Positions 1 through 6,448 of a DNA stretch of 6,448 nucleotides are shown piece by piece (within the stretch, counting starts at the first letter, position 1; each line of letters opens with the position of its first letter). Made by a program: the position numbers and the translations under genes. This DNA is from a virus (Duplodnaviria > Heunggongvirae > Uroviricota > Caudoviricetes): IMG/VR virus record IMGVR_UViG_2693429637_000008, positions 1-6,448 of that record. One strand, written 5' to 3'. A model generated the notes under the pieces. The model had not been told where the DNA came from and made no database searches. It saw only the letters and a program-made list of their open reading frames with translations.

Positions 1-50
1 TGTCAACGCCACGATGTTTGACCGTTATTTGCCATTTTCATGCCCGCTAA
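1..50. repeat. IS21-family terminal inverted repeat, istB-distal end (IRR); extent approximate
   Basis: TGTCAACGCCA...GACCGTTATTTGCCATTT pairs imperfectly with the reverse complement of 2081-2130 (TGTCAGCGCCA...GACGGTAATTCGCCATTT). Confidence 0.75.
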
Positions 51-59
51 ATACTTTCG

Positions 60-2029
<1,970 letters not shown>

Positions 2030-2080
2030 GTTGATGTCCTTTCTGGTGTGAGAACCTTAAGGAAACAACATGTTGGGTGG

Positions 2081-2130
2081 AGCGGACAATCCAAATGGCG
2101 AATTACCGTCTTATATCACTGGCGCTGACA
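2081..2130. repeat. IS21-family terminal inverted repeat, istA-proximal end (IRL); extent approximate
   Basis: Ends ...GGCGCTGACA at 2121-2130, the reverse complement of the window start with one mismatch in the first 11 nt. Confidence 0.75.
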
Positions 2131-2361
2131 CTCCCTCCGTTGTTGAGAACGGCGACGGTATGCCAGCAACTCAAGAACTCTGGTTCGTATGTTGCGCATA
2201 TCCACGCCGTTAAGCTCAATACCGTCACGGCGCATTACCTCATCCACCACACGCGCATAATTTTCAGCGGTCACGCTGTCCGGTTGCATGGCCTGTTCGT
2301 CAACCTGCTGGCTGATTCCGGCGACGCGGCGGATTAATCCCAGTATTTCGGCTTCTGTCAT
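2116..2361 (-). pseudogene. Small element gene truncated by the IS21 insertion; possibly a head-completion or head-tail connector-like protein (weak guess)
   Basis: ATG at 2361 preceded by a GGGGG Shine-Dalgarno-like run. Codons 1-77 (2131-2361) are native; the last four codons and the stop (2116-2130) lie inside the IS21 terminus. It sits directly downstream of the capsid gene. Confidence 0.5.
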
Positions 2362-2399
2362 TGTGCCCCCATCGCGCTGGTTAAGAAAACAAGCTCAGA

Positions 2400-2613
2400 T
2401 TTTTTGTAAAGAATCTGTCACGCTAAAAGATGTCGAACAAAAATTAACCACAATCATCATCTTTTTTGCATCAACTACATTAAAAACAACAGGTTACACA
2501 CATGATGATGATGACGATAAAACCACAAAAATGCGCTTTTTTCCGCGCCGACCCGCCCCGTGGACAGGCCCCCCCCACCAGGAGGACCCGCAAAAAAGGC
2601 GGCTGCTGCCGCC
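2400..2613 (-). repeat. Intergenic terminator/regulatory cassette, copy 1 (paralogue of 4918-5130)
   Basis: Shares with copy 2 the blocks TTTTTTGTAAA, TCGAACAAAAA, CGCYTTTTTCCGCG, CCGCCCCGTGGACAGGCC, CCCCCACCAGGAG and a terminal hairpin plus A-run, in the same order and spacing (plus-strand reading). Confidence 0.75.
2592..2613 (-). terminator. Rho-independent terminator downstream of the capsid gene
   Basis: Minus strand reads GGCGGC-AGCA-GCCGCC followed by TTTTTTG, 6 nt after the capsid stop codon at 2620-2622. Confidence 0.7.
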
Positions 2614-2619
2614 TTGTTC

Positions 2620-3378
2620 TCATGAAGAAATCGCTCTGACCATTCCGCGATAATCCAGAGCAGCAACGCCAGCATCAATGCGGACCTTCCAGGCCACACC
2701 GTCAACAATAAAGCCCTCCTGCTGCTCAAGGTAAGGCTCGTCATTACCGTCAAGATAAGCCACCTCAATTGTGTCCGTTCCCTGTGCTGAAAGCATGTAC
2801 CATTGCTTATCACTGACTTCATCAAGGCGGGGATCGACAATAATATCCAGTTGTTTGTGGTACGGGTTATATGAACCACTGTTTGTATCGGCACCGAAAG
2901 GCGTGGTTGAGTTAACCATTTGCAACGCTCTGTCTTCCAGAGCCGCAGGAACAAGAAGGAATTTTGGCACAATATTCAGCACCTCACCGTTTTCATCCCT
3001 CTGTGTGCGCATTGCACGGCGTGCAATGCCAAGCCCTGTAGTGCTGACTCCGTTATCAATATCATTTCCGTGTTTTTTGCTGAACAGCGGTATACCGTCA
3101 GAAAGCTTTGTGTTTCCTGTCAGCACCAGATGAACCAGATTACCCACCGTTCTGGCGGCTGCTCGCCCCATTGCCTGTGGGATAACTGTTAACTGATTCA
3201 GGTCATCGTTAATAATCGCCTGTCGGGTAATGCTGAAAATATTTCCGTAAGTTGCCAGCGCGATTGGTTCGCCACGGTCACTGGTGGTGATGTATTTATA
3301 TTCCGCGCCTTCCGGCACTTTGTTTAATGTAGAGAAGCCATTCAGGCCAACACGACGTGCCTCATGGAAGTTTGACAA
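2620..3378 (-). CDS. Major capsid protein (HK97-like), C-terminal ~250 residues; downstream frame of a split protease-capsid gene
   Basis: The 252-aa ORF has no ATG start (the ORF track begins it at a TTG) and is in the -1 frame relative to 3342-4487. Composition and length fit the body of a phage major capsid protein. It is entered from the upstream frame at the A_AAA_AAG heptamer at 3384-3390. Confidence 0.7.
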   Translation of the reverse strand: MSNFHEARRVGLNGFSTLNKVPEGAEYKYITTSDRGEPIALATYGNIFSITRQAIINDDLNQLTVIPQAMGRAAARTVGNLVHLVLTGNTKLSDGIPLFSKKHGNDIDNGVSTTGLGIARRAMRTQRDENGEVLNIVPKFLLVPAALEDRALQMVNSTTPFGADTNSGSYNPYHKQLDIIVDPRLDEVSDKQWYMLSAQGTDTIEVAYLDGNDEPYLEQQEGFIVDGVAWKVRIDAGVAALDYRGMVRAISS

Positions 3379-4487
3379 TGAACCTTTTTTCGTCCACTGG
3401 CGGAACGTTTCGCCGCTGTGTTCACGGATTTTTCAGCACCACCAGCAAGGATATAAGTAAAATCGCTGCTGCTGTGGGTGAATGCCGCGTTTACTATCTG
3501 CGAGCGTGTGCTGTAGCTGCCTGTGCTTATGCCGCGATGGGTTAATGATGCCTGTGCCATATCGAAAAGGCTCATCATGGCGTAAGGGTTGCCGCGTTCT
3601 GCCTGTTCATGTCCCAGACGCGCATTAAGCCCCTGACGCATTGCATCGCCGGTTATGTTGCCGTTATCCGTGTACGCGTAGTAAAGATTTGCGGGGGTGG
3701 TTTTGTTTGTCGGTGTCGATTCTTTACCCATAGTGAGTAAAAGGCGTTCGCGTGCATCCTCAACGCTACAGCCTGAATCAGCAAGACAACTTATAGCCAG
3801 GTCGTTATATCTTCCATTGAACGTGCCAAACAATTCACGTATCCCGTTGAGTCGTTCCTGTTCTCCGCTGCCAGTTTTCTGGCTGATCATGCTTTTAATA
3901 TTTTCCGGCATATTCGAAAAATCTCCGATTCGTTTTGATTCAATTCTGGCCATTGCTGTAATCGCGGGTATAACCTCATCTGCGAAGCCATTAGCCTTAC
4001 ACTCATTGCCATCCATCCAGGTTTCCGCCTCCATCATGGCGGTGATTTCCTGTTTGCTCCTGCCCGTTCTTCCGGCGTAGGTTTCCGCCATCGTGTCGCC
4101 CAGCTTGTCCATCAGGTCAGCAAAGCGGCGAACGTCGCCCGACACTCCGGCAGTAACACCACGGGGGGCATGTATCATCATCATCGCGTTTTCAGGCATA
4201 ACGATGTGATCGCCACACATGGCAATAAACGAGGCCATAGAAGCCGCCATGCCTTCAATGTGTACAATTTTCTTTGCCGGATGATTTTTCAGGGCGTTAT
4301 AGATAGCCAGCCCTTCAAAGATGTCGCCACCAGGTGAATGGATGCGAAGATGGATTTCAGGCACATTACCGCACGCGTTGATCTCGTCAGTAAGTGCCGA
4401 TGCTTTTACACCGTACCCGCCGATCTCGTCATAAATGCGTACATGTACAACATCAGCCATAGCCTTAATGGAAAACCATGTTTTCAT
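3342..4487 (-). CDS. ClpP/S49-like prohead protease fused to a scaffold-like linker and the N-terminal part of the major capsid protein; upstream frame of the split gene
   Basis: 381-aa ORF with AGGAG 7 nt before the ATG at 4487. The N-terminal ~190 aa have serine-protease-like motifs (IHSPGGDIFEGLAIYNAL, HIEGMAASMASFIAMCGDHIVMPENAMMMIHAP). This frame stops 13 codons after the slippery heptamer. Confidence 0.75.
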   Translation of the reverse strand: MKTWFSIKAMADVVHVRIYDEIGGYGVKASALTDEINACGNVPEIHLRIHSPGGDIFEGLAIYNALKNHPAKKIVHIEGMAASMASFIAMCGDHIVMPENAMMMIHAPRGVTAGVSGDVRRFADLMDKLGDTMAETYAGRTGRSKQEITAMMEAETWMDGNECKANGFADEVIPAITAMARIESKRIGDFSNMPENIKSMISQKTGSGEQERLNGIRELFGTFNGRYNDLAISCLADSGCSVEDARERLLLTMGKESTPTNKTTPANLYYAYTDNGNITGDAMRQGLNARLGHEQAERGNPYAMMSLFDMAQASLTHRGISTGSYSTRSQIVNAAFTHSSSDFTYILAGGAEKSVNTAAKRSASGRKKVHCQTSMRHVVLA

Positions 4488-4711
4488 AGCCAGGCTCCTA
4501 ACGTTGCCCTGTACCAGTATTCAACCGCGCTTCTCGCAATCTGCCCTTTCGTGGGTACTGGCATTCCAGGGTGATGACTTTTAATGAACTGCTGATAGCG
4601 TTCGAGCTTCTCCATAGTTCCGGCGTCTATGTGCACTGTTGCACTTTTATCCGGTTTTCTGCTGTTGTTCTCTGGCATAAGTCTGCCTCCGTTATGATTA
4701 ACGGGCATCAT
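4484..4711 (-). CDS. Small ribbon-helix-helix-like DNA-binding protein (putative regulator); true start probably the ATG at 4678
   Basis: GGAGG (plus-strand CCTCC at 4686-4690) lies 7 nt before the internal ATG at 4678, giving a 64-aa product. Predicted strand-helix-helix pattern (ATVHID / MEKLERYQQFIKS / TKGQIARSAVEYWYR). Its stop overlaps the protease start (ATGA at 4484-4487). Confidence 0.6.
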   Translation of the reverse strand: MMPVNHNGGRLMPENNSRKPDKSATVHIDAGTMEKLERYQQFIKSHHPGMPVPTKGQIARSAVEYWYRATLGAWL

Positions 4712-4859
4712 TATTGATCGATAAAACTGGTAAATAAATCATTTTCTATCTAAAAATCAGATTATGTGTTTTCTGATTTTTGTCATACCAGCAAAAGAAT
4801 TGACTAATTATTGCCACGCCAGCACAATTAAGACTCATCATTTCGGTAGTGGCAGTATC

Positions 4860-4876
4860 CTTTGTCGCTGACAAAG
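4860..4876. promoter_or_regulatory. Perfect 7-bp inverted repeat with 3-bp spacer, CTTTGTC-gct-GACAAAG; candidate operator or hairpin
   Basis: Exact dyad symmetry seen in the sequence, located in the leader upstream of the RHH-capsid operon. Confidence 0.4.
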
Positions 4877-4910
4877 CGCCTCCGGTGGCACCATCGGGGC
4901 GCTTTTTTTT
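4876..4910 (+). terminator. GC stem-loop followed by T8 on the plus strand; terminator-like, possibly bidirectional attenuator
   Basis: GCGCC (4876-4880) pairs with GGCGC (4898-4902), followed by TTTTTTTT (4903-4910). On the minus strand the same stem is followed only by a weak TTTGTC. No plus-strand protein gene ends here. Confidence 0.45.
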
Positions 4911-4917
4911 GCGCCTG

Positions 4918-5130
4918 TTTTTTGTAAATGCTTTCGGGAACGTTCCGGCGTCGAACAAAAAACAACCTAATTCGACACTAAAAATTTTTATTTTGCCATA
5001 TATCAATAACTTAAACTGGTGGTGATGGTGACATAAAAATCAAAAAATACGCCTTTTTCCGCGAACCGCCCGCCCCGTGGACAGGCCACCCCCACCAGGA
5101 GTACCTACAAAAAAGCCGGATTGCTCCGGC
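4918..5130 (-). repeat. Intergenic terminator/regulatory cassette, copy 2 (paralogue of 2400-2613)
   Basis: Same ordered conserved blocks as copy 1. Also contains a match to the IHF-site consensus as I recall it (TATCAATAACTTA, 5001-5013). Confidence 0.75.
5108..5130 (-). terminator. Rho-independent terminator downstream of the SSB-like gene
   Basis: Minus strand reads GCCGGA-GCAA-TCCGGC followed by TTTTTTG, 17 nt after the stop at 5147-5149. The stem differs from the copy-1 terminator by compensatory changes. Confidence 0.7.
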
Positions 5131-5146
5131 TTCTGTCACTCGTTGC

Positions 5147-5569
5147 TTAAAACGGTATGTTATCCCCGTACGGATCATCATTCCCCGCCTGTTGTTTGGC
5201 CCTGTTCAGTGCATCAGTGGCCTGCCCCTGTTGGCCTTTTTTACCGCCCGGTCGCGCCGTTCTGGCACTGATTACACTGTCTGCGATAACCTGCCAGCCC
5301 TGCCGCGTTTCTCCGTTCTGGCCTGTCCACTGGCTTACCTGCATGTTACCCGCCACGCTCACCAGCTCGCCTTTCTGGTGCTTTGCCAGTGCGTCAGCCT
5401 GTCTGCCAAACGCCAGGACGGATAACCATATCGTCGCCGTTCCGTCATCTGCCTGGCTGCACGGCAGGGGAACCGCCATACTCGCCATCGTCATTTGCGT
5501 ACCCTTGCTGGTGGTCTTTAACTGCGGGTCAGCCACCAGCCGCCCGTAAGCCGCTATCTGTGCTGTCAT
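5147..5569 (-). CDS. Short single-stranded-DNA-binding (SSB)-like OB-fold protein with a C-terminal ...DNIPF tail
   Basis: 140-aa ORF with GGAGAG 8 nt upstream. The N-terminal ~100 aa follow the bacterial SSB OB-fold pattern (GRLVADPQLKTT..., WLSVLAFGRQADALAKH, QKGELVSVAG). A Gly/Gln-rich linker leads to a C-terminal ...GNDDPYGDNIPF, resembling the SSB acidic IPF tip. Its ATG overlaps the upstream stop (ATGA at 5566-5569). Confidence 0.7.
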   Translation of the reverse strand: MTAQIAAYGRLVADPQLKTTSKGTQMTMASMAVPLPCSQADDGTATIWLSVLAFGRQADALAKHQKGELVSVAGNMQVSQWTGQNGETRQGWQVIADSVISARTARPGGKKGQQGQATDALNRAKQQAGNDDPYGDNIPF

Positions 5570-5811
5570 GCTGTCTGCTCTCCGGTTTTAACGTTGATGG
5601 TTGTCACCTGTTCCGCTTCGGCAATCTCCCGTTCTGTCAGCGTGGCAAAGTTTGCCGCCGTCGTGGTCATGAATGCGCTTATCAGTTCGGGATGTGCTTT
5701 CGCGTATCCTTCCCCGGCGTTGCGGTCGATGATTTTTATCGCCACCCTCAGCCAGTGTTCTGTCAAATCAAGGGCGTGAGATTGTGGTTTTTTGGCGTGC
5801 TTCGTTGTCAC
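5566..5811 (-). CDS. Hypothetical 81-aa protein, first gene of the SSB operon
   Basis: GTG start at 5811 with GAGG 8 nt upstream; translationally coupled to the SSB-like gene. No recognisable motif. Confidence 0.5.
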   Translation of the reverse strand: MTTKHAKKPQSHALDLTEHWLRVAIKIIDRNAGEGYAKAHPELISAFMTTTAANFATLTEREIAEAEQVTTINVKTGEQTA

Positions 5812-5855
5812 AGGCTTTACCTCACAGCAATAAAATAAAATTTTTGCATTTTAAC

Positions 5856-6086
5856 CCTTCACCTGTTCACCTTTTGCAATTTTCCCTTTTTATTCATGAT
5901 GTTAATGGGTTAACAGTTTCACAAAAACTATTCACCAACTGTTCACCACTGTTCACCCTTAAAGCTCAATAAAGAATCAAAAAGGTGAACAGTGAATAGT
6001 TTGGTGAACAGTTCATAAATAACTGTTCACCCTATAATATACTGATATAAAAGACATTTATTGCAGGGTGAACAGTGGTGAACAGT
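5856..6086. repeat. Iteron array: putative replication origin of P4 alpha-protein type
   Basis: Direct copies of (AC)TGTTCACC at 5864, 5940, 5950 and 6024, with variants CCTTCACC at 5856 and TATTCACC at 5929. Inverted copies GGTGAACA(GT) at 5984, 6003, 6067 and 6077. Interspersed AT-rich tracts and a perfect TATAAT at 6033-6038. Confidence 0.75.
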
Positions 6087-6114
6087 TATTCCATAAGTTT
6101 AATTTTTTCCATCG

Positions 6115-6411
6115 TCATTTGTGACCTATTGCACATGATGGCATCCAGTCTTCTGAATCCTCTGTCAGGGTCACATTTGAACGCAAACCGTGCTTCGTTT
6201 TCCGTTTCATATACTCCCTGCCATATTCCGCCATTGCCCCCGGCATATCTTTACCGAAGCGCGTCAGTGTTACAGGTTTACCGAATCCGTGTGCCCTCAT
6301 ATATGCCAGATAGGCGTGATAAAGATACCTGCGCGGACTGAACGGAATAATTTCGGCATTACCCACTAACAGACCATCACACATTACCGACGACATGAGG
6401 TGTACTGGCAA
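6115..6411 (-). CDS. Hypothetical 98-aa protein upstream of the iterons (possibly replication-associated); start uncertain (TTG at 6411 or ATG at 6396)
   Basis: Open frame with protein-like composition, but no convincing Shine-Dalgarno sequence. An in-frame TAG lies at 6421-6423, and other minus-strand frames are open right to the window edge. Confidence 0.35.
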   Translation of the reverse strand: MPVHLMSSVMCDGLLVGNAEIIPFSPRRYLYHAYLAYMRAHGFGKPVTLTRFGKDMPGAMAEYGREYMKRKTKHGLRSNVTLTEDSEDWMPSCAIGHK

Positions 6412-6448
6412 TAGCGGACACTACCATTTGTTCTTTTTTTAAGCAGCC

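Follow-up and report, generated by a model that had tools for sequence, protein, structure and literature searches.

The stretch of DNA analysed here, 6,448 nucleotides in length (hereafter the window; positions 1 to 6,448 of the IMG/VR record IMGVR_UViG_2693429637_000008, a virus of the class Caudoviricetes), carries the end of a primase gene, an array of iterons and, on the minus strand, genes for an SSB (5147-5569), for a fusion of a ClpP-like prohead protease with a major capsid protein (2620-4487) and for a truncated terminal protein of 93 aa (2131-2361). The capsid fusion gene and the SSB gene are each followed by a cassette of approximately 213 bp, copy 1 at 2400-2613 and copy 2 at 4918-5130, and the two copies are paralogous. 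An earlier reading made from the letters of this DNA alone (the sequence-only reading) had noticed the pair and regarded it as a regulatory module placed after two consecutive operons. In our assessment, the cassettes are very likely the two lambda-type cos sites of an E. coli phage-inducible chromosomal island (PICI), which would act as DNA and not as an RNA or a promoter. Copy 1, the capsid-distal and downstream site, is referred to as cos1 and copy 2, the upstream site on the SSB side, as cos2; both lie on the minus strand. As PICI cos sites the cassettes are largely explained, and a modest further interest lies in a conserved heterotypic cos pair in an island lacking both Rpp and TerS, together with a recurrent variant of cosQ.

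The duplication itself is evident from several comparisons. Alignment of 2380-2640 with 4898-5157 (MAFFT) yields a mean column identity of 79% and recovers every one of the ordered blocks upon which the sequence-only reading had based its proposal, while a repeat search returns an ungapped pair of 129 nt (2487-2615 and 5004-5132) at 71% identity. Each window copy also cross-matches the copy in the opposite position of a related island (E = 2e-24 and 1e-21), and a profile of the cos core detects exactly two sites across the whole window. Further copies, which the sequence-only reading had suggested seeking in related genomes, are abundant: of 5,426 complete E. coli genomes, upwards of 1,100 contain the cassette, in as many as 7-8 copies each. 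The conserved blocks correspond to the parts of a cos site: cosQ and cosN together form the GC-rich core, cosB makes up the AT-rich tract, the CGCYTTTTTCCGCG block is the right flank of cosN, and the TCGAACAAAAA and TTTTTTGTAAA blocks are distal cosB boxes that are common to phages too.

Lambda itself provides one line of evidence, as its right-end/left-end junction can be aligned base-for-base to the minus strand of both copies (MAFFT). The lambda cosQ heptamer GGGTCCT aligns to an identical GGGTCCT in cos1 (2583-2589), located 24 nt upstream of the predicted nick, and to AGGTACT in cos2 (5100-5106), which matches it at five of seven positions and has the same spacing to its own predicted nick as in cos1; the spacer of 23-24 nt between cosQ and nick matches that of lambda. 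Similarly, the lambda nick TTACG/GGGCGGCGACCT CGCGG (slashes mark the ends of the cohesive sequence) aligns to CCACG/GGGCGGGTCGG/CGCGG in the cosN region of cos1 (2543-2563; predicted top-strand nick 2559/2558, with a cohesive end beginning GGGCGG) and to CCACG/GGGCGGGCGGTT/CGCGG in that of cos2 (5059-5080; predicted nick 5076/5075). Among lambda-like phages, Feiss and colleagues found bp 1-6 of the cohesive end and the flanking CG to be conserved and bp 7-12 to be variable (PMC4669245), and the variation in the window cosN regions fits this pattern. The same study describes the 7-bp cosQ as highly conserved, with no natural variation apparent (PMC4669245).

The phage relatives of the cassette point in the same direction. 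In CP-933V, VT1-Sakai, Stx2_112808, 1720a-02 and mEp460, it is flanked by Rz/lysis genes on one side and by terS(DUF1441)-terL on the other, which is where cos classically resides; in cdtI it is found at the genome ends, directly upstream of terS. Furthermore, the cdtI record ends in ...CCACG (...GGCCTGCCACG) and starts with GGGCGGG (GGGCGGGAGCGTCGCGG; GGGCGGGAGCGTCGCGGAAAAAGG), which is exactly the predicted nick, while the mEp460_4F5 record ends in ...GGCCTG and starts with CCACGGGGCGGG, a break that falls inside the cosN core. The cassettes combine three features of a lambda-type cos site, namely a cosQ with the right spacing, a cosN whose phage homologues coincide with genome ends, and a location between lysis genes and terS in the cognate phages. 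Terminase would presumably cut the window sites at the corresponding positions. Several ORFs annotated as “hypothetical protein” run across the cos region in several phage and genome records (L002 8997-9269, L004 2130-2378 and L009 3059-3208), and they are probably spurious gene calls.

The layout of the region beyond cosN is consistent with a cosB. In cos1, an R3-like arm (ATCATCATCATGTGTG; 2497-2512) forms one half of an inverted repeat at bp 47-62 from the nick, where lambda R3 occupies bp 50-65 (PMC9026076). It is separated by an AT-rich spacer (2469-2496) from an inverted R2-like arm (2453-2468; bp 91-106 from the nick), and the arms ATCATCATC/GATGATGAT are present in the CP-933V cos as well. 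The spacer holds a near-consensus sequence, CATCAACTACATTA, on the plus strand, which is a putative binding site for IHF, one base of spacing removed from WATCAANNNNTTR. The cosB core of cos2 (4984-5040) consists of inverted arms at 5025-5040 and 4984-4999 around TATCAATAACTTA (5001-5013, plus strand), the only exact match to the WATCAANNNNTTR IHF consensus in the entire 6.4-kb window. Further out, in an R1-like position in cos1, are the distal boxes (2400-2443 in cos1, with TTTTTGTTCGAC at 2432-2443 and TTTACAAAAAA at 2400-2410; 4918-4961 in cos2, with TTTTTGTTCGAC at 4950-4961 and TTTACAAAAAA at 4918-4928). These boxes are common to both copies and to the cos sites of both phage types described below, and the homology of copy 1 to phage cos stops there (phage matches begin at approximately 2394-2400). 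In lambda-like phages, cosB is ordered R3-I1-R2 (PMC9026076), and the inverted R-like arms around a putative IHF site in both copies fit this geometry. IHF and TerS are accordingly predicted ligands of both window cosB regions. Just past the distal end of cos2, the plus strand contains two overlapping GC hairpins with T-runs (4876-4916; GCGCC...GGCGC TTTTTTTT GCGCC). No plus-strand gene is located near them, and copy 1 has no counterpart; between them and the 75-aa ORF lie about 200 bp of AT-rich DNA.

The two copies are not of one kind. Their nearest phage cos sites are 85-88% identical over approximately 200 nt for copy 1 and 89-91% identical over approximately 160 nt for copy 2 (BLAST), and the cosB regions of the phages concerned fall into two types, with CP-933V/VT1-Sakai and Stx2_112808 representing type A and 1720a-02/CP-1639 representing type B. 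Within cosB, copy 1 is 82-83% identical to type A (CP-933V/VT1-Sakai, Stx2_112808) and 62% identical to type B (1720a-02), copy 2 is 78% identical to type B and 62-64% identical to type A, and the copies are 64% identical to each other. A recent internal duplication was rejected, since for each copy the closer relative is a phage cos and not its partner in the window. The sequence-only reading was thus correct in concluding that the copies are not recent duplicates, although its reason, compensatory change in the terminator stems, has to be replaced: the cosB regions correspond to the cos sites of two separate phage lineages. One short segment departs from this separation. GTCCACG precedes the nick in both window copies (2560-2563 and 5077-5080), whereas the type A site reads GAACACG in the intact sister islands L001 and L015 and in the phages, and this pattern suggests a local gene conversion between the two cos cores in the window lineage.

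The distinction between the two cosB types is mirrored in the proteins presumed to read them. TerS proteins of type A and type B phages are 54% identical over residues 1-70, the DNA-binding N-terminus, and 95% identical in the rest. This distribution of divergence bears the signature of a change in packaging specificity, and cosB type co-varies with the TerS N-terminus. This link is strengthened by a related island, L016 (10419-10904, 11036-11102), in which a cosB sharing 98% identity with the 1720a-02 cosB is immediately followed by a DUF1441 TerS gene belonging to the island; relative to the 1720a-02 TerS, the island protein is 73% identical at its N-terminus and 38% identical at its C-terminus. 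Possession of its own TerS suggests that L016 employs a third mode of hijacking within the family of islands to which the window belongs.

That family is the one named after EcCICFT073, to which the host element is assigned as a PICI because three of its proteins share 80-87% identity with their EcCICFT073 counterparts, namely the SSB, the protein encoded just upstream of it and the terminal protein of 93 aa. The SSB (Pfam SSB, E = 3.9e-16), encoded immediately upstream of cos2, is 80% identical to its EcCICFT073 counterpart, and the 93-aa protein (phrog_1561), encoded immediately downstream of cos1, is 82% identical to the product of the last EcCICFT073 gene. Intact sister islands (L001 and L015) are approximately 10 kb in length and encode an integrase, an AlpA-like HTH protein, an Icd-like gene, DUF4222, a primase/helicase with an iteron origin, and then SSB and onward, the order after SSB being cos, a small ORF, the ClpP-protease/major-capsid fusion, cos and the 93-aa gene. 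The contents of the window, from the primase end through the iterons, SSB and capsid fusion to the 93-aa gene, match this synteny. Its iterons, GGTGAACAG in dense array and in both orientations, occupy 5924-6100 between the end of the primase gene (~6115) and a gene at 5566-5811, and they are probably the replication origin of the island.

The copy of the island in the window is itself damaged. Relative to L015 (strain ST130), a 13-bp deletion at 3422/3423 has turned the capsid fusion into a pseudogene whose frame is broken into 3342-4487 and 2620-3378; the intact homologue matches CLP_protease and Phage_capsid_4. At the other end, an IS21-family element (1-2130; istB 60-860 and istA 857-2029, minus strand) cuts the 93-aa gene at approximately codon 77, and homology to intact islands starts at 2131. 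As for packaging proteins of its own, TerS was not found in the window island, and a tblastn search with the 144-aa EcCICFT073 protein adjoining cos1 (E <= 1e-3) found no match in the window, L001, L015 or L016, whereas the same search found this protein at 97% identity in L003. As no Rpp was detected, the window island is classified as a non-Rpp variant of the EcCICFT073 family. The short ORFs that follow the two cos sites (81/93 aa and 75 aa) had no Pfam match and matched only PHROGs of unknown function, and a TerS-like or Rpp-like identity for them was considered and set aside as unsupported by these matches.

How widely the pair is kept can be judged from 80 IMG/VR loci fetched via the 93-aa gene, 51 of which contain at least two cos cores. 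The architecture of the window, a direct pair of cos sites approximately 2537 nt apart, was found at 18 loci, and all 18 have type B at the SSB-side site and type A at the capsid-distal one, although the count overstates their independence, the E. coli genomes in question being closely related. The AGGTACT form of cosQ recurs at the SSB-side site of 10 of the 18, a perfect cosQ occupies that upstream site in the other 8, and of the approximately 100 other sites almost all have GGGTCCT. Most of the other loci with two or three cos cores share the architecture of EcCICFT073, with one forward and one inverted site. Some possess a third site, of type A, beside SSB. Among them is the EcCICFT073-like island L003 (NCTC86), which carries its three sites at 5884-5950 (plus strand), 6662-6729 (minus) and 9105-9172 (minus), comprising a pair of the published type with the lambda cosN (GGGCGGCGACCT) and a third site, of phage type A, that adjoins SSB; CFT073 lacks this third site and has a gene for a PerC-family regulator there instead. 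L076, the IMG/VR locus closest to the window and identical to it in its cohesive-end sequences, contains a further mEp460-like cos core (9270-9337) about 5 kb past the 93-aa gene and preceded by a terminator of the capsid type, which may belong to a second island in tandem.

Each cosQ is directly abutted by an intrinsic terminator, and here the sequence-only reading was accurate as to the structures themselves. The hairpin GGCGGCAGCAGCCGCC (GGCGGC-AGCA-GCCGCC; 2598-2613, minus strand) follows the stop of the protease/capsid fusion gene at 2620, and its T-run (2592-2597) runs into cosQ; the hairpin GCCGGAGCAATCCGGC (GCCGGAG-CAAT-CCGGC; 5115-5130, minus strand) follows the stop of SSB at 5147 and has its T-run at 5109-5114. 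Both fold on the minus strand as an 8-bp stem followed by U6, as expected of intrinsic terminators, and a consensus terminator scan listed the 2598-2613 hairpin on the plus strand only. The capsid-type hairpin also follows the capsid gene in L001 and L015, and the SSB-type hairpin also follows SSB in L001, L003 and many IMG/VR loci, such that across related islands the stem type goes with the upstream gene, SSB or capsid, whichever type of cos comes after it. The terminators therefore belong to these upstream genes and merely adjoin cosQ. The differences between the two stems, which had been taken for compensatory changes under selection on RNA structure, are those of separate terminators that stay with their genes. 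Of 43 distinct island contexts, 31 have a hairpin with T-run directly adjoining cosQ, and every site in inverted orientation is among those that lack it. In phages, lambda among them, the sequence just upstream of cosQ is an AT-rich palindrome (ATGATAAnCATTATCA) and then a T-run (L002 ~9197-9225; lambda 48440-48470, L008). An inverted repeat abutting cosQ is thus positionally conserved, as a GC-rich terminator in islands versus an AT-rich palindrome in phages.

Based upon these features, a packaging route can be proposed for the island. Following excision and replication, its cos would be recognised by the terminase of a helper lambdoid phage. The winged-helix domains at the N-terminus of TerS would bind the R-like repeats of cosB across a bend induced by IHF, and TerL would thereby be positioned for staggered nicks in cosN (CCACG/GGGCGG...), at 2559/2558 or 5076/5075. 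DNA would then be translocated toward lower window coordinates until packaging stops at a later cos having cosQ and cosN. Since the island has neither TerS nor Rpp, it would rely upon cosB regions copied from helper phages, and the two sites have most likely been kept as initiation sites for two helper TerS specificities, with both presumably cut in this island and serving two helpers. Termination is known to be independent of cosB type, and cohesive ends mismatched at bp 7-12 are tolerated with an approximately four-fold loss (PMC4669245); molecules packaged from one site to the other would therefore be possible. A more elaborate version would have the heterotypic pair, type B on the SSB side and type A after the capsid gene, be an adaptive design for two helper terminases, in which AGGTACT disables termination at the upstream site and packaging consequently ends downstream to give a defined length. 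We put this forward as a tentative and rather doubtful extension.

The function originally proposed for the cassettes, a regulatory module after each operon in the form of an activator-dependent late promoter, a target for antitermination or RNA processing, or an immunity determinant like that of P4, now appears very improbable. The terminators are real, the genes past each of them need some route of expression, and the minus-strand RNA folds somewhat better than shuffled sequences (z = -2.4 to -2.8). However, when both strands of both cores are folded, most of this stability derives from the terminator hairpin, and the parts conserved between the copies are cosQ, cosN and the distal boxes as opposed to paired RNA structure. 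A scan of the whole window against Rfam (E <= 1) found nothing in the cassettes and only chance matches of microRNA models to the iterons at 5924-6100, and a promoter scan, which is blind to an activator-dependent promoter inside cosB, detected no sigma70-like site on the gene strand of either cassette, in agreement with the sequence-only reading. The P4 genes sid, psu and delta are absent from both intact sister islands (L001, L015), and P4 immunity targets (seqA/seqC) and late promoters of the P2 Ogr or P4 Delta kind are likewise unsupported. Moreover, the core is lambda cosQ and cosN position for position and coincides with phage genome termini, and the phages carry the cassette at their cos locus with no terminator preceding it. 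A covariation model of an RNA was set aside, since the conservation is accounted for by homology to cos at the level of DNA. The loosest of the original options, a protein-binding site linked to morphogenesis, is the one that the present results support.

The main rival to a pair of working cos sites is that only one cassette functions as a cos, the other being a relic, or a site for initiation only or termination only, that arose from modular phage recombination and is kept by linkage. We regard this as a serious possibility, albeit not the probable one. It draws support from EcCICFT073, where transfer needs cos1 but not cos2, the latter being slightly inhibitory (PMC6092414, PMC6739421), and from the non-consensus cosQ at cos2 in the window, L001 and 10 of the 18 related loci. 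On the other hand, the left half of cosN, the flanking CG, the R-like arms and the IHF site or near-site are intact in both copies, the pairing of type B with type A holds throughout the 18 loci, and 8 of these have a perfect upstream cosQ. It is also conceivable, although improbable, that neither cassette has any current function, both being inert leftovers of island decay, as the IS21-family insertion in the last gene and the frameshifting capsid deletion might imply. Yet this decay is peculiar to the present copy and has left its cos sequences untouched, and the same two sites are kept in intact L001 and L015 as well as at the 18 IMG/VR loci.

Several considerations nonetheless weigh against the proposed reading of the cassettes as two functional cos sites. 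The AGGTACT of cos2 is a two-base change in an otherwise almost invariant cosQ, and cos2 may therefore be impaired as a termination site or be in decay. EcCICFT073 can do without its second cos, the deletion of which raised transfer (PMC6092414), and this implies that a second site need not be beneficial. Direct cos sites only 2.5 kb apart could also generate sub-genomic molecules or molecules with mismatched ends. The island copy in the window is degenerate, and its sites may no longer be in use. To these may be added the close relatedness of the 18 surveyed loci, the blindness of the promoter scan mentioned above, and the circumstance that cleavage, IHF binding and TerS binding are all events that we infer from sequence.

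The best point of comparison for a pair of functional cos sites is EcCICFT073 itself, in which each cloned cos mobilises a plasmid, the double deletion abolishes transfer and cos1 is required (Fillol-Salom et al. 2018, ISME J; PMC6092414), with cos1 containing an unusual cosB that is read by an RppA-TerS heterodimer (Fillol-Salom et al. 2019, Mol Cell; PMC6739421). Our profile finds both of these sites in CFT073, inverted and flanking the gene for the 144-aa protein. Like EcCICFT073, the window island has two lambda-type cos sites with conserved cosQ and cosN, would depend upon the TerS and TerL of a helper, and shows a terminator hairpin abutting cosQ, which in EcCICFT073 occurs at the forward site. 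The cosB regions of EcCICFT073, on the other hand, are not phage-like, whereas those of the window are 78-83% identical to phage cosB; the EcCICFT073 pair is inverted and flanks rppA, whereas the window has a direct pair with 2.5 kb between the sites and the capsid operon in the interval; and the right halves of the EcCICFT073 cosN are GGGCGGCGACCT, compared to GGGCGGGTCGG and GGGCGGGCGGTT in the window. Relative to lambda, the cognate TerS is of the DUF1441 family, approximately 20% identical to lambda Nu1, and cosQ is preceded by a GC-rich terminator in place of the AT-rich palindrome. Relative to the type A and type B phages, where such a palindrome precedes cos and terS-terL follow it, the island has a terminator before cos and small genes of unknown function after it. 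Staphylococcal cos islands of the SaPIbov5 type likewise carry a helper cos and encode a capsid-protein homologue (described in PMC6092414), although their sequence, host and terminase type are unrelated and the likeness is drawn from the literature only.

Recognition of the cassettes as cos sites puts a concrete and testable reading in place of a speculative regulatory one. Exact ends for the packaged island DNA can be predicted from the two sites, as can its helper prophages, one of the Stx1 type resembling CP-933V/VT1-Sakai and the other resembling 1720a-02/CP-1639. This would be of particular relevance to Shiga-toxin-producing E. coli, in which islands and Stx phages residing in one cell would compete for the same terminase. 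Within a single PICI family, there would thus be at least three modes of hijacking phage packaging: Rpp combined with an island-specific cosB, an island-encoded TerS with its matching cosB, and, as proposed for the window, mimicry of two types of helper cosB.

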